From NCBI GenBank assembly GCA_964469295.1, contig CAYXYJ010000004.1, forward strand, positions 17,557 to 81,556: DNA of 64,000 bases, read 5' to 3'. Position numbers and translations under genes: made by a program. Origin of the DNA: an uncultured Candidatus Saccharibacteria bacterium. GTDB lineage: Bacteria > Patescibacteriota > Minisyncoccia > Phycocordibacterales > UBA918. Below are positions 18,141 through 64,000 of the stretch, piece by piece (the first letter of the stretch is position 1; each line of letters begins with the position of its first letter). The notes under the pieces are model-generated. The model saw nothing but the letters and a program-made list of their open reading frames with translations, made no database searches and was not told where the DNA came from.

Positions 18141-18188
18141 CTACTTTTGTTGTATAGTAAATAAGGAGCCCCAGTAACGGAGGAAGAA

Positions 18189-18798: not shown

Positions 18799-18821
18799 TT
18801 TCAATATGTGCGGGTATGTGC

Positions 18822-18854
18822 GGGGTCGAGTTGTGTAAACACAACTCGACCCCA
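18822..18854. terminator. bidirectional rho-independent terminator (GGGGTCGAGTTGTGT-AAAC-ACAACTCGACCCC)
   Basis: perfect 15-bp stem seen in sequence. Confidence 0.65.
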
Positions 18855-18864
18855 TTTGTATTTC

Positions 18865-19566: not shown

Positions 19567-19587
19567 ATCCGCACCAAACCCATTTCC

Positions 19588-20859: not shown

Positions 20860-20882
20860 AGCGCACTCTAGTATATCAGAAT

Positions 20883-20919
20883 AACCACCGGGCGGGGGCT
20901 ACACCCCCGCCCGGTGGTT
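20883..20919. terminator. rho-independent terminator (AACCACCGGGCGGGGG-CTACA-CCCCCGCCCGGTGGTT)
   Basis: perfect 16-bp GC stem overlapping the 3' end of the DUF45 ORF. Confidence 0.6.
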
Positions 20920-21375: not shown

Positions 21376-21377
21376 AC

Positions 21378-23162: not shown

Positions 23163-23173
23163 AGGAGGTAAAA

Positions 23174-23812: not shown

Positions 23813-24211
23813 ATCAAGGCTCGCCAGACATTATATAGCACGACCTGGGTAGTGACGAGTTCCTTGAATCCATATTGGATTAATGTAAGTTCTTAAATAT
23901 GTACGCTCGCGTATTGAGCACCACCTGAGCCAGACATGAAAACGACAGCGATTCGCCGCATCACCCCCCTGCTACATGCATGGGGGTTTATTTTATAAAA
24001 ACATGGCTAACGACACGAATCATAATAGCGTTTTATTGACTCTTTCGTAGATATCGTTACTCTATCGTTAGATGTCCAAACCGCTTAGTTGCTAAACGGC
24101 AAACCGGTCCGCAGTCGCACACCTATCATGACCCTGCTGACGCCTTATGTTTCTGCTAAGGCCTGCACGGACGATTCCAACAACGCACACAAAAAAATGG
24201 AGGAGACTAAA

Positions 24212-24490
24212 ATGAGCTGGCGGCAAAAGTTGCTCTGCAATCTCGCACAACCCTACATCCTCGTTGATGCTGGCAACATCTTGTATGTCAGCAGCACCGA
24301 TTGGGTGACTGAACGCGAATTACAGGAACGTGTACACAGCATCTTTCCGGAACGATGGTCATCATGGGATATCGTCAGGTTTCGCCTTGGCCTTGGTTAT
24401 CTGGTGGCACACGGCCACCTTGAACAACAACGGTTTTCCGCCAAACACCATGACGAATTGCGGTATCGACAAGCAGGAAGGACCGAATGA
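24212..24490 (+). CDS. GC-rich small hypothetical protein
   Basis: GGAGGAG RBS 7 nt before ATG at 24212; followed by hairpin plus T-run at 24516-24545. Confidence 0.3.
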   Translation: MSWRQKLLCNLAQPYILVDAGNILYVSSTDWVTERELQERVHSIFPERWSSWDIVRFRLGLGYLVAHGHLEQQRFSAKHHDELRYRQAGRTE

Positions 24491-24601
24491 GATTTACGTC
24501 GACACCAAGCCGCGCACCACCCCGGTGCGTGGCATTTTAAATTCTTTATTTGTGGACAGTGAAATGCTTTTTAAAAAGAGTGCGCTACAATAGATGTATC
24601 T

Positions 24602-26689: not shown

Positions 26690-26713
26690 ATAGACGAAAT
26701 TACTGACAACGAT

Positions 26714-26743
26714 GGTCCCATCTGGAAACTTCCAGATGGGACC
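26714..26743. terminator. bidirectional terminator (GGTCCCATCTGG-AAACTT-CCAGATGGGACC)
   Basis: perfect 12-bp stem between convergent genes. Confidence 0.65.
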
Positions 26744-26751
26744 TAGTCTTG

Positions 26752-27315
26752 TCAGGCGCGACCTTGCACTGGCTCACATAGTAATCTTTTGTCCATTTCG
26801 GATAAATCACCGTCATGGAGCATCAACATCATTGCTAGACGCTCAATTGCACTTGCGCATTCACTCAGATACAAATCTACTTGGTTAATTGCTATTCGTC
26901 CGTTCGTATCAGTGATAATTTCTGCTTTCCAAAATATACATTCATCATTGGTATCGAGATAAAATGTTCCAGGGACAATATGTTCATTAATGTCATTTGT
27001 AATCCTAAGCATTGATCGAAGATTCCATGTCACATTTGGTTGGTAAGACACCCGAATCTGTAGAAAGCAACCGTTGTCACTTACAAATGCCACTGCTTCA
27101 GGCTGACAAACAGGATGATGGAAAGTAAACCGAAGGAACTCACTATCGGCATCAATCACCCAGTCGTATGATTTGCCAAAACCGGAATATCGTACCCACA
27201 TTTCCACCGCCACCAGTGGATCACGTGGTTTGTCCATGCTTGGATAGGTCACCACACATCTCCATCTCACGTTATGATTTTCTAATGTCTGAGCATACTC
27301 CGAGATTACCCTCAT
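26752..27315 (-). CDS. hypothetical protein; start at MRVISEY with a GGGGGGAG RBS
   Basis: ORF; good SD 5 nt before ATG at 27315; no recognised domain. Confidence 0.35.
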   Translation of the reverse strand: MRVISEYAQTLENHNVRWRCVVTYPSMDKPRDPLVAVEMWVRYSGFGKSYDWVIDADSEFLRFTFHHPVCQPEAVAFVSDNGCFLQIRVSYQPNVTWNLRSMLRITNDINEHIVPGTFYLDTNDECIFWKAEIITDTNGRIAINQVDLYLSECASAIERLAMMLMLHDGDLSEMDKRLLCEPVQGRA

Positions 27316-27356
27316 GTCCACTCCCCCCTTTATTTTTTTGCAAATGTCTGCTATAA

Positions 27357-27392
27357 ATATGGGCACTTTTGCTATAGCAAAAGTGCCCATAT
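27357..27392. promoter_or_regulatory. perfect 36-nt palindrome ATATGGGCACTTTTGC-TATA-GCAAAAGTGCCCATAT; candidate operator or terminator
   Basis: seen in sequence; lies about 45 nt upstream of gene 26752..27315 and about 35 nt before tRNA-Glu. Confidence 0.4.
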
Positions 27393-27426
27393 TTCATTAC
27401 GTCAAAACGCAGTATACGATTTATAT

Positions 27427-27498
27427 GGTCCCATCGTCTAACGGCTAGGACAGCAGGTTTTCATCCTGCAAATCGGAGTTCGATTCTCCGTGGGATCA
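27427..27498 (+). tRNA. tRNA-Glu (anticodon UUC)
   Basis: cloverleaf folded by hand: acceptor GGTCCCA/TGGGATC, D-arm GTCT-AACGGCTA-GGAC, anticodon stem GCAGG/CCTGC with loop TTTTCAT (UUC), T-arm CGGAG-TTCGATT-CTCCG; resembles canonical bacterial tRNA-Glu; no encoded CCA. Confidence 0.85.
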
Positions 27499-29162
27499 CA
27501 AATAGAGGATAATCGGTCAGAGAAAGGTTCAAATCCTTTTTTGACCTTATAATCAAGCATATTTTTTGCTACATAGAGTTCTGAAAAGATGACACGTGCG
27601 ATGTTCTCTTTTTCGTGCGGTTTTGCATAATCGTAAACAGGCACAACGTTTTTTATCAGTTCTGAAAGAATGATAATCTCTTTCATCAGCTCTGCCATCG
27701 CTTCGTCTGATGCGCTCTCTGCCTCCTGTAGTGCTGTTAGTTCTCCCTGTAGTCGCTCACCCTCGGCAACAAGTCCCTCTGGGGTGTACACGCCTGATTT
27801 GAGTAGCTGTAAACGATTGGTATTTAAGTATGAGATGTCATCTCGAATACGCTTTTTTGTACGCTCCATCTGTTGTATCTCTCTAAAGCGACGCTCATCC
27901 AACAAAGCAACATCGGTACTGGTCCGCGCATCTAAATCAGCAAGTTCGTCATCTGTAAAATGTAGTCCTGCAATCAGTCCACTTATTTTGTTAGAGATAA
28001 AATCAAAGTTGCAGTTTTTGAGAGTGTTCTCGCAATCCTTTACGCATCGTGAATTGAAATACAGGATGCCTTTCTTGGTATATGGAGTATAAACTCGTTT
28101 ACAGTGAGCGCATCGGACCATACCGCGCATTGGGTGGTCCAGTTTTTCTGTATAGTGGACACTTACTTTCTTTTTACCCAAGAGTGATTGGACCAGATTA
28201 AATAACTCATCATCAACAAGCGCCTCGTGGCTAGTACTCTGAATATAAATGCCGTCTGGACCGATTATCTTTCCCGTATAAAACTGATTGGTCAAAATAC
28301 GGCTAATGCTATTCTCATTTACTGGACGAGTGGTTTTTTCAATCTCAATATCCTCATCCTCATCGGCGAGGATTTCATCTCGTGAGCGACGACGGCGCAT
28401 TGGTACAGTCGTAAAACCTTGGTCATTTGCAAAACGTGCAATGTCTGACAAGCTCCAGTCACCCGTTGCATATTTTTCAAACATTTCTTTTATTATCGGC
28501 GCTCGCACAGGGTCCAACGGCTTATCGTCCATACTACCGATATTTAGATACCCGATTGGCGCTCTGTAGGTACATTTTCCTTTAGTACGGCTATTTCTAG
28601 TACTCATCGTTACTTTCTCGCTAGTTACGCGAGAATGATGTTGAGCAAACATTCCATCAATATCCATATGGAGCGCACCAGCACTTGTGTCGTCATACGT
28701 AGCGTAGGCAAAACGCACGTCAATACCTCGTCGCATCAATTTGCGAATGATTGTATCGTCACCTTTATTTCGACTAATACGGTCCCAACAAAGGACCACC
28801 ACACCCTTGAAATAACCTCTGCTTAAATGTTGTAGTAGCTGTTGGAACTTTGGTCGGTCAATACGGTACTGAACCACGCCATCATCAGAAATATGTAAAT
28901 CATCTGTCTCCTTAAATCCAGAGTGCTTTTCAGAAACAACACCATCGGTACAAAAGCCCTTTAGAGTTACTGGAGCAAGTTGTAGACGTTCACGTGTCAA
29001 AAAACGCATATTCTCTACTCGTTGGTATGGGATAGAGTTCTTTTGATTATTCGCCTCGTCGGTACTTTTACGATTGTAAATAAGATAGTGGTCACTATAA
29101 ATACCGCTTTGAATAGCTTTCAGAATATCTGTCTCTATTTTCGGCTTTTTATTCATTTTCAT
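27438..29162 (-). CDS. large serine recombinase (integrase)
   Basis: N-terminal resolvase domain (IYNRKSTDE catalytic Ser, VVLCWDRISR), recombinase domain, zinc ribbon CAHCKRV...CVKDC, C-terminal coiled-coil; the last approx 20 codons overlap the tRNA-Glu gene. Confidence 0.85.
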   Translation of the reverse strand: MKMNKKPKIETDILKAIQSGIYSDHYLIYNRKSTDEANNQKNSIPYQRVENMRFLTRERLQLAPVTLKGFCTDGVVSEKHSGFKETDDLHISDDGVVQYRIDRPKFQQLLQHLSRGYFKGVVVLCWDRISRNKGDDTIIRKLMRRGIDVRFAYATYDDTSAGALHMDIDGMFAQHHSRVTSEKVTMSTRNSRTKGKCTYRAPIGYLNIGSMDDKPLDPVRAPIIKEMFEKYATGDWSLSDIARFANDQGFTTVPMRRRRSRDEILADEDEDIEIEKTTRPVNENSISRILTNQFYTGKIIGPDGIYIQSTSHEALVDDELFNLVQSLLGKKKVSVHYTEKLDHPMRGMVRCAHCKRVYTPYTKKGILYFNSRCVKDCENTLKNCNFDFISNKISGLIAGLHFTDDELADLDARTSTDVALLDERRFREIQQMERTKKRIRDDISYLNTNRLQLLKSGVYTPEGLVAEGERLQGELTALQEAESASDEAMAELMKEIIILSELIKNVVPVYDYAKPHEKENIARVIFSELYVAKNMLDYKVKKGFEPFSDRLSSICDPTENRTPICRMKTCCPSR

Positions 29163-29376
29163 TTTGTTTGACCAGTCGTCCCTCTATTATAACGTACCCA
29201 TCTTTCCTCATCCTGATGTATATAGGTTTGAGTACCTCGGACAGCTCTACCAGTGCCTTTAGCGAGCAGTCGGATAGCACCTTATTTGGGACCTTATCGC
29301 AACTCACAAAACCGCGTTGCAAATCGCTTTTTTCAAACGTACTGGTTTTGTGTAGCTCGCTCATTATCGTGTGCAA
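29149..29376 (-). CDS. small protein overlapping both neighbours; candidate recombination directionality factor/regulator
   Basis: 75-aa ORF whose ends overlap the Rep gene (13 nt) and the integrase gene (14 nt); no motif recognised. Confidence 0.3.
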   Translation of the reverse strand: MHTIMSELHKTSTFEKSDLQRGFVSCDKVPNKVLSDCSLKALVELSEVLKPIYIRMRKDGYVIIEGRLVKQNENE

Positions 29377-48820: not shown

Positions 48821-49798
48821 TTATGGCACAACTCCCGGCGCGGTGCCGGTGCTCGTCGCCGCTGGTGCAGTAGTGGTGGCCGTGGTTGAAGCAGTTTCTG
48901 GCGTCACGAGCACTCCGGGCGGTAATGATACGGTAAATAAGTCATCACGAATATCTTTTATCAGTGCTTCGGTGGCGTTATATGACTGCGTGACAATTGG
49001 TTCCCGCGCCACTGACACATATTGCAAACTTTGTAATGATAGCGGGAGTGGGACATACCCATATTGTTCTGGTTGGGTTGGTGACGTTTCAATATCAGTA
49101 ATCACACCATATACACCCGAATCAATGGCCGGCAACACTACGACATCACCGGTATGCAACGGAATACCTTGTGGTACTCTCACCCGCAGCATACCGCCGC
49201 CGATACCTTCTGAGTAGGTATAGATGTTTGGTCCAATCACATATGCTGTAGCCGTGAAATTGGCGGTGGTCACCAACGTCACCAACGCGGTGTTACTGTA
49301 CACGGTAGATACATACCCGATTACTTGATCACTACCCAAAAACACCGCGGCGTTTTCAACTACTCCATCAACACTTCCCTGATCAATCATAAGCACATCA
49401 TAAGGCAAATATGGCGGACGGGCCGCGACCCGAGCAATGATTCGTTCATCAGGAACTGCATCACATAGTTGACGAAACTGATTATTTTCAGCTTGTAATT
49501 TAGCAATCGTGTTGTCACTGGCTTCACAGATAGCGACTTTTGCTTCTAAATCATCAATGCGAGTATCTAATGTTGTGCGATCCCGAAGATAGGTTGGTAA
49601 AGAATTTGATGATTCATTAAACCATACTCGGGCCGTTTCAATCGGCCATAACAAAACGGCCGCAGTACGAGACACGACAACTGGCACAATCAGCCACAAC
49701 AACAGCAGTATCGCTAGTACAGCGATAACAAAAAAGATACGTTTATGAAAGAAGGTTTGGCGAGAGTTCCCCTTCTTTGTCAATGAGTATTTCTTCAT
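48821..49798 (-). CDS. mreC: rod shape-determining protein MreC
   Basis: N-terminal TM and coiled-coil, beta-rich periplasmic domain, Thr/Ala-rich C-terminal tail; synteny with mreB. Confidence 0.6.
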   Translation of the reverse strand: MKKYSLTKKGNSRQTFFHKRIFFVIAVLAILLLLWLIVPVVVSRTAAVLLWPIETARVWFNESSNSLPTYLRDRTTLDTRIDDLEAKVAICEASDNTIAKLQAENNQFRQLCDAVPDERIIARVAARPPYLPYDVLMIDQGSVDGVVENAAVFLGSDQVIGYVSTVYSNTALVTLVTTANFTATAYVIGPNIYTYSEGIGGGMLRVRVPQGIPLHTGDVVVLPAIDSGVYGVITDIETSPTQPEQYGYVPLPLSLQSLQYVSVAREPIVTQSYNATEALIKDIRDDLFTVSLPPGVLVTPETASTTATTTAPAATSTGTAPGVVP

Positions 49799-50819
49799 AT
49801 TGATTTAAATTTTCTACAACAATACCGGCTCCACGAATCACTGTACGAAGTGGATCAGGAACTATAATAACCGGCACTTCAAGCACTTCTTCAAGCAGTT
49901 GCTTTAGTCCGGGAATCAATGCTCCGCCACCGGCAATGTGAATGCCACGTTGCATAATATCAGCCAGGACTTCAGGTGGAGTCTTTTCAAGCACAGATCG
50001 TACTGCTTCTACGATTGTATCAACTTGGGTCGCAATCGCGTCTCGTACATCACTATCAGTGATCGCTACTTCACGCGGCAACCCAGAAATAACATCACGA
50101 CCACGAACAATGTGTTCTTTTCCACCCTCTGGTTCATCAATAGACGCGAGTAAAATTTTGACATCTTCGGCAGTTTTTTCACCAACATAAATTTTAAATT
50201 GGTCACGAATATATGTCATAATGGCCGCGTTTAGATGATCTCCAGCCACTCGTAAATTTTTCGCGACAACAATGCCATTGATCGAAATCACCGCGATGTC
50301 AGTCGTACCGCCACCAATATCAATAATCATGCTACCGACCGCTTTACCGATTGGTAATTTGGCACCAATCGCCGCCGCCATTGGTTCTTCAATTAAAAAC
50401 ACTTCTCGGGCGCCGGCATTACGGGCGGCATCACGCGCCGCGCGCATCTCTACGTTCGTGATCCCTGACGGCACCCCCACTAATACTCGAGGCGCAATCA
50501 ATGTCCGTACCTCATTACGGACTTTATTGATAAGGTAATGCAACATTTCTTCAGTCACTTCAAAATCAAAAATTACCCCGTCAACGAGCGGACGAACAAC
50601 GTCAATATGTCCCGGAGTGCGACCCTGCATCGCACGAGCTTCGTTTCCGACCGCGATTAATTGACCAGTTTTTTTGTTCATTGCGACAATGGTCGGTTCA
50701 TTTAATACAATACCTCGACCTTTAACGTACATGAGGGTATTTGCCGTTCCTAAATCAATGGCCACATCAGTAGAAAAAGACGAAAATATTTTTTGGAAAA
50801 TGGAAGACAACCACTTCAT
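49743..50819 (-). CDS. mreB: rod shape-determining protein MreB
   Basis: actin-fold phosphate motifs IDLGTANT, DIGGGTTD; MreB-length. Confidence 0.9.
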   Translation of the reverse strand: MKWLSSIFQKIFSSFSTDVAIDLGTANTLMYVKGRGIVLNEPTIVAMNKKTGQLIAVGNEARAMQGRTPGHIDVVRPLVDGVIFDFEVTEEMLHYLINKVRNEVRTLIAPRVLVGVPSGITNVEMRAARDAARNAGAREVFLIEEPMAAAIGAKLPIGKAVGSMIIDIGGGTTDIAVISINGIVVAKNLRVAGDHLNAAIMTYIRDQFKIYVGEKTAEDVKILLASIDEPEGGKEHIVRGRDVISGLPREVAITDSDVRDAIATQVDTIVEAVRSVLEKTPPEVLADIMQRGIHIAGGGALIPGLKQLLEEVLEVPVIIVPDPLRTVIRGAGIVVENLNQYEEILIDKEGELSPNLLS

Positions 50820-53826: not shown

Positions 53827-54474
53827 TTATTGTTTTATTATAGCATTTTTATTACTCAAAGCGACTGGTAACGTCAGCGCAATTTCTTCCCAAATCATTT
53901 TCTTTGAGGCACCACGCAATCGTAGATACTGCAGACAATCTGACAGTGAAGTTAATGCCGACAGTGATAACGATGACGAATAACGATTAAGATAATTGAC
54001 CAGCCCGGTTTCCAGTTGCAAAAAATCCGTGTCTGCTTTTCTTTTAACGATATCAGCAATCATCAATAAGCGTTTGGCCACTCCTGTTTCAAAAAAATCA
54101 TTAAACAGCGACGATGTGTCAGTATTAGCGACCAAAAACTCCACAGTAAATCGAGATAATAGTGTATCTGGTAACTGCGCTATTGATGGCAGCGAAAAAA
54201 TAAATGTGGTTGTGAGAGGCGGTTCTTCTAAAATCTTCAATAATGCTTCAGTCGCTTCGATGGCAATTTTTTGGGTGTGAATGACGATTACTCGCTCTCG
54301 AAACGTTGGGGCCGGTGTCTGGTGCGCTGTTTTAATGATAAAGCGTACATCACTAATAGTGAGTGTAGCAAATGGTAGTGTAAGGATTTCCAATGAAGAA
54401 TCCTCTGTCAAAGCCTTCACTCGATTTATTACCGAAACTCCTTCACCTACCAACAACAACGCATGATGATTCAT
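53827..54474 (-). CDS. holB: DNA polymerase III delta-prime-like subunit (short)
   Basis: HALLL(V)GEG box, ALLKILEEPP and TLLSRF (sensor/SRC) motifs; lacks a canonical Walker A. Confidence 0.55.
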   Translation of the reverse strand: MNHHALLLVGEGVSVINRVKALTEDSSLEILTLPFATLTISDVRFIIKTAHQTPAPTFRERVIVIHTQKIAIEATEALLKILEEPPLTTTFIFSLPSIAQLPDTLLSRFTVEFLVANTDTSSLFNDFFETGVAKRLLMIADIVKRKADTDFLQLETGLVNYLNRYSSSLSLSALTSLSDCLQYLRLRGASKKMIWEEIALTLPVALSNKNAIIKQ

Positions 54475-54481: not shown

Positions 54482-55960
54482 TTATGAACTGCGCTTTTTT
54501 ATTTGCAACTCGAGAATATGATGAATGACGCGACGTAAATAATGCTCAAAGTTTTCATTTTTGTCGTAAATAATTCCTTGTTCGTATCGCCACCCATTCA
54601 TATAATCAGTAATACTTTGCTTTATTTCTGCTGTAGCGCCTTCAAACCGCCCAGATAAAATAACCGGAATTTGTAAATCAGCTAACTTTAAGAATAGTGG
54701 ATGTTGACGACCGCGCGGGCCAGTACCAAACATTCCACTTTTCTTAAATAATGACCACTCGGATAATAATTGCTGCAATCCATTATCAACATCAGTGTCA
54801 TAGAGCGGATCGACCGCGCCGTTTGCCGATCGTAATTCGGCTTCGGTCGGTAAATCTTTTGGTGTTCGTAATGCGGTAGCGGTCGCCACTGGAGCAATTG
54901 GCATTGAATAACGGCTACTTGAAATAGCAATCGGTGATTCTGCGGTATCGGCAGCAACAATTGGCAATGCAGTTTGTGTGATTGGTGATGCAGTAATCAC
55001 TGGTTGTACTAATGCGGAATCAGTGCCGTCTGCAATCACCATGGGTTTCACTGTCGATGTTGCTACTGGCATTTCAATTGACACAACCGGCGTATCAGGG
55101 ATTGCAGTTGGAGTCACTATAGATGGCTCACTATTGTGACTATCAAGCGTACCATTTACCGTTGGAGTACCGACGGTTTTGGTTAACGCATCAATCCGAC
55201 TCGCTATTGTCCGTAATGTTTGCATCGCCGGTTGTGGCGCCTGATCTCCACCGGAAACGGCTTTCATCGCATCAAGCAGTGCCGACATATACGCTCGCCC
55301 AATTTCATTATCTCGCTCAACTAAATGAACCGGGTTACCAAAGGCGGTGTTCACCCGTTGTTTAATCGCCGCAATTTCTGATCGCATTGCGTCAAGGGTA
55401 GTCTCATTAGTCGTGCCGTCAAATGATGGCGCGCTGGGGACTTTTTTTATGGTTGGCAACTTCGGTTCAATGCGAACCGGAATATCATTGCTCGTACTCG
55501 TAATGCTTTCATCAGAAACTGACGTAGTAATTGCGGTCTTGATCTCTTCTTTGGCTACCGATTGTAGCTCACGGGCAACTTTAATACCAAATTGTGGTGT
55601 AGAACGACCGTTGGTAAACCGAGCCGTATCACGCTCTACAGAAATTTGCACTGGAGTTGTCGTAACAGCAACATCATTAAGGACTGGACGAACAGTAGCA
55701 AAATCGGCTGGCGTATGCGGTGGCACTGGCGTGGCAGTTTCTGCAGTTGATTTTGTTTGAAGTGGTAGTAACCGCTTTTCAATTTCAATACGCAATTGTT
55801 CGTCTCCCCCGCTATTTGTATACGCAAACACCAAATCACGTAGTGCCCGCTGATCTTTTTTTGAGACAACATGCGTACGAATAAAACCCAATATTGTCGC
55901 CACACCATTAGTGCTACGAAAATCAAAACGTCCATCCGAAGAACTCACTCCCGAACTCAT
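54482..55960 (-). CDS. hypothetical protein (492 aa) with Thr/Pro/Ala-rich low-complexity middle region
   Basis: ORF only. Confidence 0.35.
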   Translation of the reverse strand: MSSGVSSSDGRFDFRSTNGVATILGFIRTHVVSKKDQRALRDLVFAYTNSGGDEQLRIEIEKRLLPLQTKSTAETATPVPPHTPADFATVRPVLNDVAVTTTPVQISVERDTARFTNGRSTPQFGIKVARELQSVAKEEIKTAITTSVSDESITSTSNDIPVRIEPKLPTIKKVPSAPSFDGTTNETTLDAMRSEIAAIKQRVNTAFGNPVHLVERDNEIGRAYMSALLDAMKAVSGGDQAPQPAMQTLRTIASRIDALTKTVGTPTVNGTLDSHNSEPSIVTPTAIPDTPVVSIEMPVATSTVKPMVIADGTDSALVQPVITASPITQTALPIVAADTAESPIAISSSRYSMPIAPVATATALRTPKDLPTEAELRSANGAVDPLYDTDVDNGLQQLLSEWSLFKKSGMFGTGPRGRQHPLFLKLADLQIPVILSGRFEGATAEIKQSITDYMNGWRYEQGIIYDKNENFEHYLRRVIHHILELQIKKRSS

Positions 55961-56052
55961 ATATCTTACATAGTATCATCACTTTCCTCATCTAAAGCAG
56001 ACAACCATCACAATCTGTGAATTACATGAAGTCCATCCTCGCAGTATCATTA

Positions 56053-58707
56053 TTACGATGCTTCTTTAGCGGTTTGATTCGTATGAGTAACGAGGAGTGC
56101 AATCACCTCACGCATCGGCATGTCATCAGTGATATGCAAACCGGCGGTTCGGGCAGTAATCACCACTGCTGTATAAAAGGTATCAAACAAATCTGGGTCG
56201 AATTGGTGAATACCTAACTCTGTAACTCTTTCTGTCGGACCCATCAGAGCGATATCAGTCACGTTGCGTACGGAATAATCATTTAGTAAGCGATTATACT
56301 GTTCTTGTTTTTGTTCGTATTCTGCCCGCATCGGATTGAACATATTTGGAGCGACGCCAATTACTGCTTCCATAACATCCGCGTCACTGAATTTTTCGGC
56401 AACAACTGGCATTTCGGTCAAGGCAGTATGTCCAGAGCCACTTACCTTAAGACGTTCGGCAGTCTCTAATCGATTTTTGATGGCAGTATATAATTCCGTA
56501 ATGTCGACCACCTCTCCCGGTTCGGTAACGTCCCAATCACCGTGAATAAATCCTGATGTTTCCAGCCAGGAAGCATCAGTGGTCAAACGAGCAATTTCCT
56601 CGTTAATAATTCCTTCTCGCACTGATCCGGTAATCGTTGGGGCGATTACATCAAGTGCGTGACGCAGTTCTCGTTCCACCCACATGCCTTTGGTAATTGT
56701 CAGAACACCAAATCCAGGCGTCATCGACTCAGTATTTGTATCTGCCACTGGTACATCAATAACATTCTGTTGCGATAGTAACGTCGGCATCGTTTGCGTT
56801 ATTGACGCATCAGGGGTATGAGAGACAACGTTAGGTTCTTCCATCGGAATCGAAATATTTGGTAAAGAATCTATTATTGTCGCCGTGTCAGTTGATTCGG
56901 TAAATGGTTCAAGCCGAACATCAAGCGCTTCAATAACTGGAGAGATTAATGTTGCTGGTACATCGCCAACAACAACCGGGTCGGTGTCAACAATTGAAAT
57001 TGTTTGATCATGGGTAATTGACGGTTGGTTGATGATTGATTGTGGTTCATCAAGATTAACGGCAGTTGGCCACAACGCCAATGTAGCGGCCAAAAATTGC
57101 TTTCGGGTAAAAAAGGTTGGCACCAACCGTCGCCATGATCGAGCTTTTAACTGATTAGCCGTTCGATTATATTGATCTTCAATGAATTGAATACTGAGGT
57201 CGTGTGGATATTGACGTTTGGCATTTTTTAACGTTGCCAAGAACTCGTTTTCACTGACTTCCAAATGATTGCCACGTTGAATACTCCCGTTAATACGTTT
57301 AGCATCATGGCGAAATCTTTCTTCGGCAACGCGCAGGGTATCTATCATTTGCTGTTGTGATAGTACTCTGCTGTCAACAGTAGTTTCAGTCTTTGTCTCT
57401 TCACGACCAACACGACCAACTCTCCACCCCTCCGGCGACAATACCGATTTTGTAACAGCAGTCTTAGTAATTGTCTCTGGCGACACCGTCTCTATCGATT
57501 CCCTCTTCTTATTGATCCAACCATATCTATCACCAAATAAATGCGGGTACTTTTTGGCTAATACTTCTCTCGTGGGAGGCATGGCAGGGGCGACAACAGC
57601 GACATCCGAGACCACGTCTTCAATCTTCTCCGGATTGACTTTTAAAGCCAAATCTTCGTTTACTGCGATTTCTTGATCAGTTGTCGTTTCTGTATCTAAA
57701 TTCTCTCGACCAATCGATGATTGTGGCCAGGTATCGGTCGAATCGGTTGTAGCGACCACGACTGTTTGATGAGGATTATCCGTGGATTCATCAATACTAT
57801 ACGCTGCGATTTTTTCTCTTAACGCACCGCGTCGTTTCTTTAATTGTTCCATCCGCCACGGCACCTCGGTGTGCCATCCTTTACTCTGGAGGAGCGCCTC
57901 GACTTGCCTGAGTTCTTTTTGTAATGATTCAATCTGTAAAGCAGGTAGTTCACCCACATCGGTTGGCGCTTCGTCTGTGCGTAGACTAGCATCATCCACA
58001 TCGACTATTTCTATATTCTTGTCAGGAGTGTCGGCTGGATCAATTACTCTTTCGATAGATTCAACCGCTAAAGGGTCGGTGCGTAATTTTTTCACTAATT
58101 CTATGTATTGATGGCAATCAGCCAACAAGCGTTCGGCGCAACGTTCGTATCGTTGCAAACTGGTTTCTAATTTTTCGCCAGCTAGCCTATTTACAATAAA
58201 TGTATTAACGGTCGCTTCGGTCCACGCAATAGCTTGAAACTTCTTTTTTAGACGCAACAATAACTGTTGTTCAGTTGTATGGGGTGTATCCGTAGCATCA
58301 ATAGCTAATTCTTTCGTGACGGCACTCGTGTCATTAATGATGTCATCGAGAGCCTTTTCGACAGCACGGTACCGTTCTTTGGATTCTTCAATTTGCACAA
58401 CCCATCCATTGTGTTCACGAATCATTTCCTGATATTCGTTGTCTGACACAATAGTATTCAACTCCATCGCGACACGGTCTACGACAGTTTGGTTAGCTGG
58501 TGATTCGTCAATCGTTTCAAGGAATTGATCTAACTGCAATGATAGACGATCCATTATCGTTTTACTTTTTTTACTATGACGTGCACGAATGGAAAAATGT
58601 TCTTTAGTTATCAAAATTTTCCGTCTTAATGCATCAACGATACGTTCAATATTTTCAACAGATTCAGTTGGAGCAACAGAGTAATTTGTTTCAATACGAG
58701 TACCCAT
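56053..58707 (-). CDS. large hypothetical protein (884 aa)
   Basis: ORF only; no recognised motifs. Confidence 0.35.
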   Translation of the reverse strand: MGTRIETNYSVAPTESVENIERIVDALRRKILITKEHFSIRARHSKKSKTIMDRLSLQLDQFLETIDESPANQTVVDRVAMELNTIVSDNEYQEMIREHNGWVVQIEESKERYRAVEKALDDIINDTSAVTKELAIDATDTPHTTEQQLLLRLKKKFQAIAWTEATVNTFIVNRLAGEKLETSLQRYERCAERLLADCHQYIELVKKLRTDPLAVESIERVIDPADTPDKNIEIVDVDDASLRTDEAPTDVGELPALQIESLQKELRQVEALLQSKGWHTEVPWRMEQLKKRRGALREKIAAYSIDESTDNPHQTVVVATTDSTDTWPQSSIGRENLDTETTTDQEIAVNEDLALKVNPEKIEDVVSDVAVVAPAMPPTREVLAKKYPHLFGDRYGWINKKRESIETVSPETITKTAVTKSVLSPEGWRVGRVGREETKTETTVDSRVLSQQQMIDTLRVAEERFRHDAKRINGSIQRGNHLEVSENEFLATLKNAKRQYPHDLSIQFIEDQYNRTANQLKARSWRRLVPTFFTRKQFLAATLALWPTAVNLDEPQSIINQPSITHDQTISIVDTDPVVVGDVPATLISPVIEALDVRLEPFTESTDTATIIDSLPNISIPMEEPNVVSHTPDASITQTMPTLLSQQNVIDVPVADTNTESMTPGFGVLTITKGMWVERELRHALDVIAPTITGSVREGIINEEIARLTTDASWLETSGFIHGDWDVTEPGEVVDITELYTAIKNRLETAERLKVSGSGHTALTEMPVVAEKFSDADVMEAVIGVAPNMFNPMRAEYEQKQEQYNRLLNDYSVRNVTDIALMGPTERVTELGIHQFDPDLFDTFYTAVVITARTAGLHITDDMPMREVIALLVTHTNQTAKEAS

Positions 58708-58716
58708 AACTAGTCA

Positions 58717-61551
58717 CTACAGTATAGCATCAAGTGGCGGTAACGGTGCCGTTTCTTTTATGTACCGCACGGCAATTTCAGTTTCAACGTCGGCGCGTGG
58801 ACGACCATATCGTTGACTGCTCATTGTTTTCATCTCGTTTATTCGCCTTACATCAGGAGTTTGTGGTGGCATGGTTTTCACACTAAAAGGTTTTGTTGGC
58901 ACCCCATTAGCTAACATCCGCAAAAAGCAGTGATAATTAGGAACATTCATCAAATCATTCGCACCAAACACCGGCGCAAACTGGGTCTCCAAAAACGCTG
59001 CGTCATCCGATCCTACCCGAAAGGCGGCAAGCGACCCCACATTCCCAAAGACAGCGTTTTTAATCCCTTCGTCTAATTGGGCAATAAATTGATGCGCCAC
59101 CGTCAGCGATAATTTATATTTTCTAGCCTCAGATAAAATCGAGGAAATTGATGGTGTTGAAACATTTTGAAACTCATCAATGTGGAGGAAAAACGGCGCA
59201 AAATCCATCGCTGCATTATCCACCCGTGACAAAGCCGCCATTAATAATTTTCCAACAATAATCATCCCAATTAAATTGGCGTTTATTTCTCCAAGCCGAC
59301 CTTTTGATAAGTTTACCAACAGAATTTTCTTCTCATCCATAATCTGCCGGAAATTAAATGCGCTTTTTTCTTGACCAATAATTGGTCGCATGTAGTCGTT
59401 TGCCGTAAACACATCAAATTTTGACACGATGTACGGTACGATATTTTCGAGGGAGGCTTCCCCGCCAGCTTTCGTGGCAATCTCACGCCAAAATTGAACA
59501 ACGACGGGATTTTTGGCTTTTTCCAGCTTCATCCGACGATATTTAGCATCGGCCATCACCCGACTGATATCCATGAGCGTGTTACCACTCTGAGGATCTT
59601 CCATCACAAGGAGCGTCGCATTACGGAAATATTGTTCAAACATCGGCCCCATACTTTCTGGGTTGGCTCCGTATAACTTTTGAAAAATCGAAAACAATTC
59701 GTTAACAACAAAAGTTTTCTGCTCTGGTTTCGCCACATCGTATTCGAGCATATTAAGACCAATCGGCCGATCAAGATTTGATGGATCAAAATAAATCACG
59801 TCACCCGCCCGGTCTTCTGGAATATTCCCGAGCACCTGTTCAATATCGGTACCGTGCGGGTCAATCATACACACACCATGACCGGCCTGAATATCTTGAA
59901 TAATGAGGTTTTGCAAAAAGACCGACTTACCGGTTCCGGTTTGTCCAATCACATAAAAGTGTCTCATGCGATCCTTTTCCGTCATAAAGATATCCCGTTC
60001 AACATTGCGATGTTCATTGATACCCAACAACGTTCCTTGATCCGGCATATCAGTTGGTGCTGCCGCAGTATTAGCGTGTGATTGTTTGAATTGTGGCGAC
60101 GAAACAATACCATTTCCAGGGAAATGAATAATGGTCGCTAATTCAGTTTGATTCAGTAATACAGCAGTTTTAGGATTAAACTCACGAAATGAAAAGGCTT
60201 TTTCAGCGTTTCGTAATGCCGACCGGCGGTGGTGGGTAAAGGCAAATTGGTTGCCGGTCACGTGCGAATATTGATGAAACACGGCTTCAATTTCATGCAA
60301 AATTTGTTCAGCCCGTGTAGTCGATGTCGCGGACACAGCAATACGAATGTTTGTTTCAATGATATCACTTTGCAATTTTTCATTAAATTGCTCAATTGCT
60401 TCTTGATCTGGTTCTTTCACCTCATCTCCTTCACGTTTCTGATTATTAGAAAAAAACAACCCACCAACATCAGCAAACACATCACCGGTAAATGTACTCC
60501 GTTTGATTGCCTCTTTCGGTGACATACCCTTTTTAACCCGTTTGATAATATCATCGTAGGTCTGTCGTTTCGCAGTTCCCGCATGTCTGAACACAAATTG
60601 CACCGCAGCCCCCCCACCCTCTCGTTCAATTTTAGAAAAAGCATTCAGCAACACCGCCAGCGGATCACTTTTAAATGATTCGTGGGTGCGAATCGGATAA
60701 ATGGAATGTCTTGTTTGTGATAATTCTGACACCAAACTAACGCCATTATCAACAAAAATATTATAATCATGCACTTGTTCGGTCAGTACTGCATGCGGAA
60801 ATAATGATAGGGTTTGCTTTTCAAACAATGCCACATACGGTGTTGGTACCGCTGCATAAAATATAATATCGTCACTTTTGTCTGCTACAGCAATTTCCAG
60901 AGCGACATGGAAAGCAGAATCTTTAGCGGTGATGCTCCGTAATCCGGTATAAAGTTGTTCCATCATGCCAACTAATTCGCCCAACTGATATTCCCGATCA
61001 TCAGCATTTTTTAATTCGGGCAACATGACCTCAAATAACGTCATGTGCAACATTTGCCAGGGCGGCACTCCTTCACGCAAATCTTGGGTGGTACGACCTT
61101 GTTTGATCATTGTAATCAAATGACGGTGGACTTCATCAATCACATATGGATTATCGATCTTTTCCAGCACCGACAGAGCGTTCCGCACCCCTTTTTCTAC
61201 CGCAACAGTAAGGACTTCTTCAACTGGGTTATGGGTAGTGGTGATGTGGGCTTCAAGGCTCGCCAATTCGTGATCAGCAAACAATCTATCACCACTAACG
61301 ACGACCCGCGGCGTAAACATGCTATATTCCTGCAACTCCGCTTTGGCCACGCTGGCTAATTCTTCGTGATCAGCGTCTGGTTGCATTTGCAAAAGTTCTC
61401 GTTCACGTTCAGCAATTCGTGCACGCAAAAATTCAATCTCGGCTTCAGGTGAAGAAAATGGTTTTTGTGGAAAATTCTCACGCATATTTGTATACCTTAT
61501 GATACATGAGGAGGGGCGCCGTAGGCGCCCCTCCTTCCCCACCCCAACCAT
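58717..61551 (-). CDS. VirB4/TraC/HerA-like P-loop ATPase (FtsK-HerA superfamily; candidate type IV secretion / DNA-translocation ATPase); likely start MRENFPQKP
   Basis: Walker A YVIGQTGTGKS, Walker B FFLHIDEFQN, downstream LTVAHQ and FRVGSDD blocks typical of VirB4/VirD4-like ATPases; approx 500-aa N-terminal non-ATPase domain. Confidence 0.5.
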   Translation of the reverse strand: MVGVGKEGRLRRPSSCIIRYTNMRENFPQKPFSSPEAEIEFLRARIAERERELLQMQPDADHEELASVAKAELQEYSMFTPRVVVSGDRLFADHELASLEAHITTTHNPVEEVLTVAVEKGVRNALSVLEKIDNPYVIDEVHRHLITMIKQGRTTQDLREGVPPWQMLHMTLFEVMLPELKNADDREYQLGELVGMMEQLYTGLRSITAKDSAFHVALEIAVADKSDDIIFYAAVPTPYVALFEKQTLSLFPHAVLTEQVHDYNIFVDNGVSLVSELSQTRHSIYPIRTHESFKSDPLAVLLNAFSKIEREGGGAAVQFVFRHAGTAKRQTYDDIIKRVKKGMSPKEAIKRSTFTGDVFADVGGLFFSNNQKREGDEVKEPDQEAIEQFNEKLQSDIIETNIRIAVSATSTTRAEQILHEIEAVFHQYSHVTGNQFAFTHHRRSALRNAEKAFSFREFNPKTAVLLNQTELATIIHFPGNGIVSSPQFKQSHANTAAAPTDMPDQGTLLGINEHRNVERDIFMTEKDRMRHFYVIGQTGTGKSVFLQNLIIQDIQAGHGVCMIDPHGTDIEQVLGNIPEDRAGDVIYFDPSNLDRPIGLNMLEYDVAKPEQKTFVVNELFSIFQKLYGANPESMGPMFEQYFRNATLLVMEDPQSGNTLMDISRVMADAKYRRMKLEKAKNPVVVQFWREIATKAGGEASLENIVPYIVSKFDVFTANDYMRPIIGQEKSAFNFRQIMDEKKILLVNLSKGRLGEINANLIGMIIVGKLLMAALSRVDNAAMDFAPFFLHIDEFQNVSTPSISSILSEARKYKLSLTVAHQFIAQLDEGIKNAVFGNVGSLAAFRVGSDDAAFLETQFAPVFGANDLMNVPNYHCFLRMLANGVPTKPFSVKTMPPQTPDVRRINEMKTMSSQRYGRPRADVETEIAVRYIKETAPLPPLDAIL
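61510..61540. terminator. hairpin GGAGGGGCGCC-TACG-GGCGCCCCTCC after mreB paralogue
   Basis: perfect GC stem; no strong T-run. Confidence 0.5.
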
Positions 61552-61558: not shown

Positions 61559-62704
61559 TTACCGCTTCGTCAAAATTGCCCGTTTATAGGTTGCCAGATG
61601 TTCAAGCGCCGTCCCAGTACCTTTAACGACACAAAATAACGCCTGATCAGCCAAGACCGCCTTGACGCCAGTGCGTCGCTTAATAAGTTCCGGGAAATTA
61701 CGTAATTGTGACGTACCGCCGGTCATAATAATACCCGCATCAATAATGTCCGATGCTAATTCCGGTGGCGTTTCTTGAAATACATCTTTAATAGCTTTCA
61801 CCATTTCGCGCAATTCTTTGCCAATGGCGCGAACGACTTCATTGGTTTTAATTTCAGTTGTTCGTGGCAATCCGGTAAATACATCTCGTCCTTTTAAATC
61901 CATGACTAATTCTTCCTCAAGTGGTAAGGCTGACCCAACGGTAATTTTTACGTCTTCAGCAGTTTTTTCACCAATGGCTAAATTACGTGATTTTTTAACA
62001 AAATCCACAATTGCCGCGTCAATGCGATTCCCGGCACATTTGACCGAATTAGCAGCCACAATGCCGCCAAGTGAAATAACCGCAACATCAATGGTACCGC
62101 CACCAATGTCAACAATCATATGACCCTCCGCGCCATAAATCGGTACTCCGGCACCAATAGCAGCTAAAATTGGTTCTTTGACGACATAGGCATTTTTAGC
62201 ACCAGCTTTCATGGTGGCTTCGACCACCGCTCGCCGTTCGGTCGATGACACGCCGGCTGGCACTGATACCATAACGTCTGGTTTAAACAAATTATATCGA
62301 CCAAGTGCTTTATTAAGAAAATAGCGCAACATCGCTTCAGTCACTCGGTAATCAGCGATGACACCATCTTTCATAGGACGATACGCTCGAATATTATCTG
62401 GGGTGCGACCAATCATTGCTTTGGCTTCTGCTCCAACTGCCAACACCGCATTATTATCTCCAACCGCCACCACCGACGGTTCATTTAATACAATGCCCTG
62501 ACCAGGCACGTATACCAAAACACTAGTTGTTCCCAAATCAATTCCAATTTTTGGACTAAAGCGATCAAACATAGAAAAAGTCACCCCCATAGTACGAGAG
62601 TTTGTACAGTGACGCAAATGACAGGTATATAGCATATATGCTATACTTGTAAATCTATGGACAATAACATTGGAAAACGCATCGCCGACATTCGTGAAGC
62701 ACAA
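61559..62704 (-). CDS. MreB/Mbl-family actin homologue (second paralogue); likely start MFDRFSPKIGIDLGTT at approx 62571
   Basis: GIDLGTT and DIGGGT motifs; GGGGGTGA RBS. Confidence 0.75.
   Translation of the reverse strand: MCFTNVGDAFSNVIVHRFTSIAYMLYTCHLRHCTNSRTMGVTFSMFDRFSPKIGIDLGTTSVLVYVPGQGIVLNEPSVVAVGDNNAVLAVGAEAKAMIGRTPDNIRAYRPMKDGVIADYRVTEAMLRYFLNKALGRYNLFKPDVMVSVPAGVSSTERRAVVEATMKAGAKNAYVVKEPILAAIGAGVPIYGAEGHMIVDIGGGTIDVAVISLGGIVAANSVKCAGNRIDAAIVDFVKKSRNLAIGEKTAEDVKITVGSALPLEEELVMDLKGRDVFTGLPRTTEIKTNEVVRAIGKELREMVKAIKDVFQETPPELASDIIDAGIIMTGGTSQLRNFPELIKRRTGVKAVLADQALFCVVKGTGTALEHLATYKRAILTKR
62628..62645. promoter_or_regulatory. perfect 18-bp palindrome TATAGCATATATGCTATA in the divergent mreB2 / HTH-murA intergenic region (candidate operator overlapping a -10)
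   Basis: seen directly; 12 nt upstream of the HTH ORF start. Confidence 0.45.
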
Positions 62705-64000
62705 GGGTTAACCCAAACCGATCTCGCCCGGAAAATCAAAACCACTCAATCGGCCATTGCCCGGATTGAAAGTGGCACCCAAAATATCACTACAGATATG
62801 CTAAAGAAAATTAGCGGTGCGCTGGGGAAAAATTTAGTAACGCTTTCACCGGGGAGCGTTAATGTGGTCATCGAAGGTAAGAAAAAATTGTCCGGTACAA
62901 TTGAAACCAACACTTCCAAAAACGGTGCGGTTGGACTGTTATGTGCATCACTCCTTAATCGGGGTACAACCACCCTGCATCGGATGCCTCGTATTGAAGA
63001 AGTGCATCGGATTATCGAGGTTCTTGAAAGCATTGGCATGCAAGTCACTTGGAGTGGTTCAACGATAACGTTAATTCCACCGAAAAAGTACAATCTTAAA
63101 AATATCGACGTGGAAGCTGCTCGCAAGACTCGTAGTATTGTCATGTTCATTGGTGCCTTGATTCACACTTTGCCGCAATTCTCATTACCGCAATCTGGTG
63201 GTTGTAAATTAGGAAGTCGCACGGTACGTCCACATTTTTATGCGCTAGAAAATTTTGGTGTTGCGATTGAAACAACTAATGATGCATTTAAAGTTTCGTA
63301 TGCTCCGGCATCACCAACAGAGATTGTCCTATACGAATCCGGTGATACTGTCACCGAAAATGTCTTGTTTGCGGCCGCCCGGCACAGTGGTACAACTACC
63401 ATAAAATATTGTTCGGCTAACTACATGGTACAAGAAATTTGTGTCTTTTTAGAAAAGCTTGGCGTCACCATTGAAGGTATTGGTACCACGACACTGACAG
63501 TGACTGGTGTTACTGATATCAATACCAATATCGAATACACACTGGCTGAAGACCCAACTGATAGTATGTTTTTTATTGCTGCTGCTATTGTCACTCATTC
63601 CAGCATCACGATCACCCGTTGTCCAATTGAATTTCTTGAACTGGAATTATTGGTACTTGAAAAAATGGGACTGGAATATACCATCAGCAAACCGTACATC
63701 GGCGCTAACGGTCAGATAAAACTCGTTGACATAAAAATCAAACCATCAACTTTATTAGCATCACCCGAGAAGATACACTCACGTCCGTATCCAGGGTTGA
63801 ATGCAGATAACTTACCATTTTTTGCCGTCATTGCTACCCAAGCCGAAGGTCAAACGTTAATTCATGATTGGATGTACGAAAAACGAGCGATTTATTTTAC
63901 TGAATTAGAAAAATTGGGAGCTGATACTGTCTTGGCTGATCCACATCGTATTTATATCACTGGACCAACCCCACTACGAGCAACCGAACTTATTTGTCCA
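62657..64000 (+). CDS. murA: XRE-family HTH domain fused in-frame to UDP-N-acetylglucosamine 1-carboxyvinyltransferase (MurA); 3' end beyond the window
   Basis: open reading frame with no stop from ATG 62657 to the window end (not in the ORF track because open-ended); residues 1-65 form an XRE HTH (GKRIADIREAQGLTQTDLARKIKTTQSAIARIESG); residues from approx 70 align with the MurA N-terminus (VVIEGKKKLSGTIETNTSKNGAVGLLCASLL...PRIEEV). Confidence 0.7.
   Translation, partial: MDNNIGKRIADIREAQGLTQTDLARKIKTTQSAIARIESGTQNITTDMLKKISGALGKNLVTLSPGSVNVVIEGKKKLSGTIETNTSKNGAVGLLCASLLNRGTTTLHRMPRIEEVHRIIEVLESIGMQVTWSGSTITLIPPKKYNLKNIDVEAARKTRSIVMFIGALIHTLPQFSLPQSGGCKLGSRTVRPHFYALENFGVAIETTNDAFKVSYAPASPTEIVLYESGDTVTENVLFAAARHSGTTTIKYCSANYMVQEICVFLEKLGVTIEGIGTTTLTVTGVTDINTNIEYTLAEDPTDSMFFIAAAIVTHSSITITRCPIEFLELELLVLEKMGLEYTISKPYIGANGQIKLVDIKIKPSTLLASPEKIHSRPYPGLNADNLPFFAVIATQAEGQTLIHDWMYEKRAIYFTELEKLGADTVLADPHRIYITGPTPLRATELICP

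Follow-up and report, generated by a model that had tools for sequence, protein, structure and literature searches.

In the 64-kb stretch of Patescibacterial DNA analysed here (the window), three consecutive genes on the minus strand encode a large ATPase and two partner proteins, designated X and Y, downstream of a second mreB gene, mreB2. The ATPase is, by its sequence, a type IV coupling protein (T4CP) of the VirD4/TraD type, of a sub-type without a membrane anchor, and it is a vertically inherited, strongly conserved core gene with a recurrent partner cassette. Our favoured reading, to which we give a probability of roughly 45%, is that a coupling protein has been domesticated as a motor that has cargo or adaptor proteins of its own, and that this motor is probably tied to the actin-like protein MreB2.

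The assignment of the ATPase comes from several profile comparisons. Three Pfam families matched above their cutoffs, namely T4SS-DNA_transf (PF02534, 28.0 bits against a cutoff of 20.1), TraG-D_C (PF12696, 23.4 against 22) and DUF87 (29.1 against 23.2), and TrwB_AAD_bind (PF10412) stayed just below its cutoff with 19.4 of 20.5 bits. The best NCBIfam matches were TraD/VirD4 models, all of them below their equivalog cutoffs (TIGR03743, 50 of 366 bits; TIGR03754, 36 of 648; NF045973, 31 of 250). When a profile of the homologue family was compared with all sequences in the PDB, TrwB (1e-6) and DotL/IcmO (2e-5) came first, and HerA-type helicases appeared at about 0.01. By structure, Foldseek placed TrwK/VirB4 first (E 3e-9, with alignments of about 900 columns and TM-scores of 0.27-0.31), followed by TrwB, Cag-beta and HerA. 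The original prediction, made from the letters of this DNA and a list of its open reading frames (ORFs), had called the ATPase VirB4/HerA-type, and this has to be revised. By sequence, VirB4 was rejected with 17 bits for TIGR00929 against a cutoff of 643 and no VirB4 protein among the PDB sequence matches. HerA was rejected with 12 bits for NF040819, whose cutoff is 970; the central domain DUF87, a generic one, is all that matches, and no nuclease or NurA gene lies beside the ATPase. A HerA-NurA repair helicase with housekeeping partners, the outcome that the same prediction had set against itself, was not what the profiles returned. FtsK was also rejected on profile scores, since FtsK_SpoIIIE (PF01580) reached 22.7 bits, below its cutoff of 24, over the P-loop only (residues 517-551), and the Pfam scan detected no FtsK gamma domain. 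A defence system was rejected by genomic context, the match to the PADLOC model mad8 being partial (E 4e-13). The broader idea of a divergent motor of the type IV secretion kind with novel partners was supported by the coupling-protein Pfam matches, by TrwB and DotL as the nearest proteins and by relatives in conjugation clusters.

The ATPase ORF (58717-61551, minus strand) spans 944 aa, and its start is very probably M23 at position 61485, which would give a protein of 922 aa (58717-61485), because a 100%-identical database protein has 922 aa and the homologues all have 912-935 aa. The predicted protein begins with a helical module (61096-61485, minus strand, residues ~1-130; helices at 13-128 in the AlphaFold2 (AF2) model), followed by an alpha/beta N-domain of the DUF8128 type (60076-61053, minus strand, residues ~145-470), for which the predicted local distance difference test (pLDDT) score is mostly 75-93, and a P-loop NTPase domain (58756-60048, minus strand, residues ~480-910). 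Thus, the N-terminal domain of about 500 aa and unknown function that had been predicted is covered in part by DUF8128 (PF26449), and its first ~130 aa are a module of their own. The PF26449 annotation is a precomputed one, carried by the 100%-identical database protein and nearly all homologues; a local Pfam scan gave no PF26449 row. The helical module is homologous to a separate gene of ~141 aa found directly upstream of the ATPases of one paralogue class, type C (profile E 6e-10), and the N-domain can be aligned with the N-domains of coupling ATPases of plasmids and phages. Walker A (GQTGTGKS, 59923-59946, minus strand, residues 514-521) and Walker B (HIDEFQN, 59164-59184, minus strand, residues 768-774) are present as predicted, as are the AHQ and FRVGSDD blocks, and all four blocks are invariant across homologues. 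The catalytic residues are unchanged in near and distant homologues, and the mean column identity over 38 homologues is 75%. It is likely that the protein is an active ring NTPase, given the intact catalytic motifs and the strong purifying selection. The AF2 model as a whole is moderate (pLDDT 68) and consists of the helical module, the alpha/beta domain and a RecA-type NTPase domain, with helices at 575-717 between Walker A and Walker B, where pLDDT is below 50 over much of 587-709. An N-terminal transmembrane anchor was not found, as no 19-residue window in the first 500 aa is sufficiently hydrophobic, and hydropathy gave no transmembrane segment or signal peptide in the ATPase, X or Y, in agreement with the expectation that none of the three is a polytopic membrane protein.

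The second line of evidence is the conservation of the locus. We compared 164 related loci, with neighbour statistics drawn from at most 80 loci per scan, with mechanical ORF calling and with assembly taxon labels as deposited, some of them doubtful. The identity of their ATPases to that of the window is bimodal, either at least 60% (type A) or 40-52%, and over more than 120 clusters the ATPase is 65-77% identical. Type A comprises 29 distinct loci. In 21 of 28 the ATPase gene is directly preceded by mreB2, and in 4 more a single gene stands between the two (25 of 28). Downstream, the first position (+1) is taken by a large unclustered protein X of 437-1423 aa, the second by a small protein designated S (16 of 19), the third by Y (16 of 17), the fourth by holB (15 of 16) and the fifth by frr (15 of 16). 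Co-occurrence across relatives, which had been proposed as a check, was therefore found, the order mreB2, ATPase, X, S, Y, holB, frr recurring in about 30 loci. Between the window and the related locus L003, identity is 94% for MreB2, 87% for MreB1, 84% for frr, 82% for proS, 76% for the ATPase and 39% for Y, and X is essentially unalignable. Such strong conservation of the ATPase is not expected of a typical coupling protein of a mobile element.

Outside type A, the 40-52% group contains further paralogue classes of the ATPase. Type B is a full-length paralogue with 43-50% identity that is often found downstream of secY-adk-map, close after map in many loci (L008, L013, L014, L021, L029-L034, L038, L039, L041, L047, L053 and others), a position that in our reading marks where the ribosomal-protein operon ends. 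In type C, the first ~130 residues of the ATPase are encoded by a separate upstream gene, and some type C loci keep the holB-proS-mreB1 neighbourhood; these are probably distant positional orthologues of type A. In another lineage (L005, a JGI 3300025904 contig; P0278-P0301), near pheST and gyrBA, the ATPase is fused to a Pro/Ala-rich acidic tail of 300-1200 aa with a short conserved C-terminal motif, a tail that presumably resembles the C-terminal partner-binding tails of F-plasmid TraD and DotL. On a 565-kb metagenome contig (L145), a 38%-identical ATPase precedes an unknown protein of 613 aa, an ORF of 76 aa and a full-length dnaX (gamma/tau), in this order, an arrangement that echoes the linkage of the ATPase to holB in the window. 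The holB-like gene of the window (53827-54474, minus strand, 215 aa) has only a partial match to Pfam DNA_pol3_delta2, covering profile positions 80-153 of 161; the holB genes of type A are likewise short (206-210 aa), and distant loci carry a holB of 360-587 aa or dnaX. This gene is a neighbour of conserved order, and gene order alone does not show that it is a member of the system.

X (56053-58707, minus strand, 884 aa) starts 9 nt after the ATPase and is the most variable component. Among 5.8 billion database proteins it matched only itself, and it is acidic (net charge -48) and rich in Thr, Glu and Val. X is nevertheless, by profile, a very divergent member of a fast-evolving syntenic family: the proteins in the analogous position at other loci are linked by chains of weak similarity, and a leave-one-out profile of 17 such analogues scored 14.4 bits against the X of the window, in colinear order, against at most 5.9 bits for 200 shuffles. 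Two C-terminal blocks are conserved (56416-56643, residues 689-764, and 56080-56292, residues 806-876, both on the minus strand). The X profile also detects large variable proteins beside type B and C ATPases (L111 at 1e-13; L050, L052 and L024 at 1e-4 to 6e-4). The N-terminal part appears to be coiled-coil-like, as the family profile matched dynein heavy chain, keratin, designed coiled coils and Hsp104. Domain searches of X found nothing in Pfam and NCBIfam and marginal single matches in PADLOC and PHROGs (E 0.027 and 0.003), and Pfam gave nothing at its thresholds for 13 X analogues from other loci, save one unrelated transporter at that position. A relationship of X to relaxases was rejected, the hhalign probability being below 0.1% against the relaxases that occupy the same position on plasmids.

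S is a protein of ~100 aa, acidic (pI ~4.2) and, in our judgement, helical. At type A loci it comes after X. It also accompanies a large variable protein in six loci of type B and two of type C, as a rule behind that protein, although in one type B locus, L111, it precedes the X-like protein. In five Moranbacteria-like loci the order is permuted to large protein, S, N-module and ATPase. Cassettes of ATPase, large variable protein and S thus recur beside paralogous ATPases in other genomic contexts. A search of the PDB with the S profile gave nothing convincing (best E 0.024, to an unrelated protein). In the window S is absent: its profile found nothing in the six-frame translation, and the gap between X and Y (55961-56052) measures only 92 bp and holds no remnant. 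X, with S where present, is most likely a cargo or an adaptor of the ATPase, because mobile relatives encode their substrate directly downstream of the ATPase and because the triad of ATPase, X and S has been kept through duplication and rearrangement.

Y (54482-55960, minus strand, 492 aa) behaves differently from X. It has 752 homologues, the named ones all of the Paceibacteria type and none annotated in Pfam, and it is found only at type A loci. Therefore, of the two genes that had been taken for ORFans, X is one and Y is not. The AF2 model of Y contains three helical modules with pLDDT above 90, all on the minus strand (55748-55912, residues 17-71; 55172-55405, residues 186-263; 54488-54808, residues 385-491), joined by disordered linkers rich in Pro, Thr, Ala and Val with pLDDT below 50. 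The alignments show three conserved blocks as well, the C-terminal ~110 residues being conserved most strongly. The predicted low complexity of the Thr/Pro/Ala/Val kind applies to these linkers (~72-185 and 264-370) and not to X, and the prediction that the partners lack recognisable domains agrees with the searches, which found no known domain in X or Y. Against the PDB, Foldseek gave Y nothing better than E ~1 and the sequence profile nothing. We also considered whether Y is related to the Pro/Ala-rich tails of the fused ATPases, and no relationship was found; nor are two protein clusters of distant loci, c37 and c100, related to Y as its counterparts, c37 being presumably similar to a GtrA-type membrane protein, to judge by motif. 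Three modules on flexible linkers, as modelled, suggest that Y may be a tether.

The rates of evolution set X and Y apart from the ATPase. For the closest available pair of loci, L093 and L103, in which frr and holB are 98% identical, identity is 71% for X in its alignable part, 78% for S and 83% for Y. The ratio of non-synonymous to synonymous substitutions (dN/dS) in this pair is 0.006 for mreB2, 0.045 for the ATPase, 0.09 for S, 0.10 for holB and frr, 0.33 for Y and 0.37 for X. X is thus the fastest-diverging gene at the locus. S diverges faster than the housekeeping neighbours in protein identity, though not in dN/dS (0.09). Both X and Y are real coding genes that change ~6-15 times faster than the ATPase at non-synonymous sites, as gene-wide averages in which diversifying and relaxed selection are not separable.

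Relatives of the ATPase are also found outside the Patescibacteria, or candidate phyla radiation (CPR), and they point to its origin. The family is large, with 20,915 representative clusters at E<=1e-3 and 5,437 at <=1e-30. Full-length relatives, including the N-domain, were found by tblastn with 20-27% identity on plasmids of Bacillus, Streptomyces/Embleya and haloarchaea and in Bacillus and Geobacillus phages. Proteins of a Bacillus subtilis plasmid (E 6e-32) and of an Embleya plasmid (E 2e-65) cover query residues ~193-894, and phrog_5156 matches residues 195-905 (E 1.5e-79). On the B. subtilis plasmid NZ_CP154917 (L165), the DUF87 homologue is followed by a gene annotated as replication-relaxation, by conjugal-transfer genes and by a second large ATP-binding protein; on the Embleya plasmid, the homologue lies between PrgI-family and ATP-binding proteins on one side and replication-relaxation and NlpC/P60 proteins on the other. 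The replication-relaxation proteins are relaxases, and the surroundings on both plasmids include genes annotated for conjugal transfer. In phage CampHawk (L168), a ParM-like actin gene is located a few genes upstream of the homologue CampHawk_129 and a replication-relaxation gene directly downstream, and in phage 0305phi8-36 (L167) the series runs from orf207 (MreB-like) to orf201 (the homologue) and orf200. The actin-like gene is thus upstream and in the same direction in both phages, divergent (ParM) in the Bacillus plasmid and not annotated in the Embleya stretch. The homologues of the Bacillus plasmid and of both phages have no transmembrane segment, and the Embleya homologue has one transmembrane-like N-terminal window. 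It has been reported that the 'DNA translocation operon' of 0305phi8-36 consists of a relaxase (orf200), a VirD4-like coupling ATPase without transmembrane helices (orf201), a VirB6-like protein (orf203) and an MreB-like protein (orf207), that most members of the family have no transmembrane helices, and that MreB may be their membrane anchor (Pathria et al. 2012, PMC3357382). By sequence the ATPase of the window belongs to this anchorless sub-type of coupling proteins, whose members on mobile elements hand a relaxase to a transfer apparatus, often with an actin-like gene nearby. The locus is best explained as descending from the coupling-protein arm of a conjugation system of the Gram-positive (monoderm) kind, since fixed in the chromosome and passed on vertically. 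A co-acquisition of the actin gene with the ATPase is unsupported, as MreB2 is not detectably related to the actin-like proteins of the phages and plasmids.

MreB2 is nonetheless a frequent neighbour of the ATPase at type A loci. The gene (61559-62572, minus strand, 337 aa from M45, the ORF reaching a TTG at 62704) matches Pfam MreB_Mbl with E 9e-126 and 419.6 bits, its product is 42% identical to the mreC-linked MreB1 (49743-50819), and across orthologous loci it is 83-95% identical. Compared with L003, it is better conserved than MreB1 (94% against 87%). Non-orthologous actin-like genes accompany the ATPase in CPR, in both phages and near the Bacillus plasmid homologue, and by this analogy it is plausible that MreB2 serves the ATPase as a membrane anchor or positioning filament. 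The 84-bp gap between mreB2 and a divergent gene for a helix-turn-helix (HTH)-MurA fusion protein contains a perfect 18-bp palindrome, TATAGCATATATGCTATA (62628-62645), which occurs once in the window and in none of 100 shuffles. In 20 related loci the 14-nt core, TAGCATATATGCTA, is found without any change, despite a divergence of 6-35% in the flanking proteins; at the loci whose coordinates were compared (L003, L001, L004 and L007 among them) the position of the core is just upstream of mreB2. The palindrome is a candidate operator or promoter element of a unit of mreB2, ATPase, X and Y, whose co-transcription appears likely from strand and spacing only. The scans for promoters and terminators gave no more sites than shuffled sequence and are uninformative on operon structure. 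The HTH-MurA gene (62657 to 64000, plus strand) encodes an Xre-type HTH and a MurA/EPSP-synthase domain, is 90% identical to its L003 homologue and is a candidate for the regulator of the mreB2-ATPase operon. An ORF of 134 aa at 62746-63150 on the minus strand, antisense inside the HTH-MurA gene and of odd composition, is almost certainly spurious.

With these elements a mechanism can be proposed. The ATPase would recognise X through the conserved C-terminal blocks of X, and S, where present, would help as a chaperone or adaptor. Driven by ATP, the ATPase would then feed its substrate, which might be X itself or a nucleic acid bound by the partners, to a membrane translocon, most plausibly the Patescibacterial type IV secretion system (T4SS) encoded elsewhere in the genome. 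MreB2 would give the anchorless motor membrane attachment or positioning, possibly with Y as a tether. The analysis itself shows to which family the ATPase belongs, how its domains are arranged, that gene order and cassette recur, and how fast the genes evolve; that the ATPase forms a ring, that it binds its partners, what it carries, that it works with the T4SS and what MreB2 and Y do are inferred. The T4SS of Patescibacteria has been described as near-universal, chromosomal, usually located near dnaA, without a relaxase or an adjacent coupling protein, and essential in Southlakia (PMC12102498; review PMC12857230). In addition, a survey of 3,035 Patescibacteria genomes counted 5,713 VirD4-type homologues, distributed over 2,918 of the genomes; just 148 were located near virB4, and exaptation was raised as a possibility (Quinonero-Coronel et al. 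2025, PMC12102498).

Several observations weigh against the proposal of a domesticated coupling-protein motor. A search for T4SS and pilin genes had been suggested for the genome and was run within the window, where no T4SS component (VirB4 or VirB6), relaxase or pilin gene was present among the scanned ORFs of the 64 kb. A membrane anchor is lacking in the ATPase, and no secretion signal could be recognised in X or Y. The proposed chaperone S is missing from the very locus of the window. In 3-7 of 28 type A loci, among them L006, the closest relative, no mreB2 gene stands immediately upstream. In its degree of conservation the ATPase is similar to frr and proS, and it is set among genes for cell shape and replication, which would suit a cytoplasmic role equally well, and the dN/dS of 0.37 for X fits a relaxed coiled-coil or disordered scaffold as well as an arms race. 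The AF2 model is only moderate, and the Foldseek TM-scores are low. Furthermore, it is reported that epibiotic growth of Southlakia does not require its T4CP homologue but does require the T4SS genes (PMC12102498).

Some of the same observations could be taken to mean that the locus encodes a cytoplasmic housekeeping machine, in which a soluble FtsK/SftA-like DNA translocase or remodelling motor is tied to MreB2 and serves segregation, division or shape, with X and Y as coiled-coil or disordered scaffolds. We regard this as a serious alternative, though a less likely one than the coupling-protein motor. The cassette is located inside a block that runs from mreB2 through holB-frr-rseP-proS-mreB1-mreC-pbp2 to dcw, MreB2 (dN/dS 0.006) and the ATPase are extremely conserved, the proteins have no transmembrane segments or signal peptides, X is partly coiled-coil-like and Y tether-like, and the T4CP homologue of Southlakia is non-essential. 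However, the closest families are coupling proteins and not FtsK, PF01580 being under its cutoff and no gamma domain being detected, and the cassette of ATPase, X and S is also found in unrelated contexts, such as after secY-adk-map, so that a holB/mreB neighbourhood is not needed. The linkage to holB or dnaX persists in the distant loci L064, L072 and L145, but it looks like inherited synteny and not like repeated recruitment.

Alternatively, the ATPase could be a motor for the import or export of nucleic acids, which would drive DNA or host RNA across the T4SS and employ X, S and Y, in place of a relaxase, to handle the nucleic acid. The ancestral relatives are paired with relaxases in conjugation and 'DNA translocation' operons, and Patescibacteria lack nucleotide synthesis; for one member in cultivation, uptake of host RNA and T4SS-like tubes at the host interface have been reported (bioRxiv 10.64898/2026.06.21.733656). 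Yet the searches of X, S and Y turned up no domain that binds nucleic acids, X and S are both highly acidic, and X has no relaxase homology; we regard such a motor as unlikely. It is very improbable that the locus is the remnant of a mobile element (an integrative and conjugative element or a prophage) or a HerA-type defence or repair module. Although homologues occur on plasmids and in phages, the mad8 match and weak HerA matches exist, and a serine recombinase and a tRNA are present elsewhere in the window, the cassette holds the same chromosomal position in about 30 loci whose housekeeping genes are similarly diverged, its GC content is unremarkable, no integrase, relaxase, nuclease or NurA gene is adjacent, the recombinase is 25 kb away, and the HerA and VirB4 equivalogs scored 12-17 bits against cutoffs of 643-970. 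Returning to the domesticated coupling-protein motor, a bolder form of it, which we hold to be doubtful, is that the two or three DUF8128 ATPase classes, each with a hypervariable giant X and usually S, are the cytoplasmic motors so far missing for the Patescibacterial T4SS, which is essential and has no relaxase, and that they export giant strain-specific proteins to the host interface or import host RNA or DNA, with a dedicated, extremely conserved MreB paralogue as membrane anchor or track.

The remaining features of the window place the cassette on a chromosome. Its coordinates and lengths of 944, 884 and 492 aa were confirmed as predicted, and the Pfam scan agrees with the prediction of an mreB paralogue upstream and holB-frr-rseP downstream. 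Y is separated from holB by 7 nt, and the order continues with frr, rseP and proS, then mreB1, mreC, a PBP2-type transpeptidase, greA, lysS and the mraZ-mraW-ftsI-murF division block. Where homologues are named, they derive from metagenome-assembled genomes of Candidatus Paceibacteria, Parcubacteria, Nomurabacteria and Kaiserbacteria, and GC is ~44% without a local anomaly; on these grounds the locus is CPR/Patescibacteria chromosomal DNA within a block of cell-envelope and housekeeping genes. Far from it, at ~18000-29200, lies a possible integrated element, in which a tRNA-Glu (27427-27499) abuts a gene for a large serine recombinase (27438-29162) and a PIF1-like helicase with an HTH is encoded at 21378-23162; GC is 0.48-0.52 at 18-24 kb and ~0.44 elsewhere.

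Patescibacteria, a major part of the diversity of bacteria, live at the expense of host cells, and their T4SS is essential in the one member that is genetically tractable. The orphan coupling-protein homologues, which have been counted in thousands, here form conserved cassettes with specific partners and are inherited like housekeeping genes, and such a cassette may be the missing motor of a host-dependent lifestyle. The locus offers a testable system, with candidate cargo or adaptor proteins, a candidate cytoskeletal anchor and a conserved candidate operator, and it connects genes of CPR bacteria with a group that is little known, the coupling ATPases without an anchor from phages and plasmids of Bacillus. 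The DUF8128 and DUF87 families, the bulk counts of T4CP homologues and the analysis of phage orf201 were already known. Our literature searches on DUF8128, and on CPR together with DUF87, found nothing, the T4SS papers are silent on the features of the cassette, and we found no description of the CPR cassette (X, S and Y), the paralogue classes, the MreB2 linkage, the contrast in rates or the palindrome upstream of mreB2.

When compared with known systems, the ATPase shares with the T4CPs (VirD4, TraD, TraG, TrwB and DotL) an NTPase domain with T4CP profile matches. The helices that the AF2 model places between Walker A and Walker B, with low pLDDT over much of their length, may correspond to the all-alpha domain that T4CPs have inserted there. 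In contrast, typical T4CPs have an N-terminal transmembrane anchor, where the window ATPase has a soluble helical module and a DUF8128 N-domain, and they are encoded beside genes for a relaxase and a T4SS channel, none of which accompanies the ATPase among the scanned ORFs of the 64 kb. Unlike theirs, its gene belongs to the core genome, is inherited vertically and exists in two or three paralogue classes. Triads of an effector, a chaperone or adaptor and a coupling protein are known, such as DotL with IcmS/IcmW, or VirE2 with VirE1. These likewise place a large substrate-like protein beside a small acidic helical protein and a coupling ATPase; however, they have no relation in sequence or fold to the cassette, S is absent from the window, and X is a candidate substrate. 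The Patescibacterial T4SS appears to have the same source as the ATPase, monoderm conjugation machinery of the MPF-FATA (mating-pair formation) type (Quinonero-Coronel et al. 2025; Wang et al. 2023 cited there). The ATPase falls into the class of 'T4CP homologues encoded far from virB4' of that study (PMC12102498), which did not describe the DUF8128 architecture, the X, S and Y partners, the MreB2 linkage or the paralogue classes. A further parallel is with the anchorless ATPases of plasmids of Firmicutes and Actinobacteria and of Bacillus phages (orf201, SPO1 gp27.4 and CampHawk_129), which are homologous to the window ATPase over their full length. The phage loci mirror the CPR gene order, and the relaxase stands there where X stands here. 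The differences are that the downstream gene of the phages and plasmids encodes a relaxase, whereas X, S (where present) and Y have no relaxase homology, and that their actin-like proteins are not orthologous to MreB2. Finally, the phage and plasmid loci are mobile, and the operon of 0305phi8-36 is dispensable in the laboratory, whereas the cassette of the window is fixed in the core genome.

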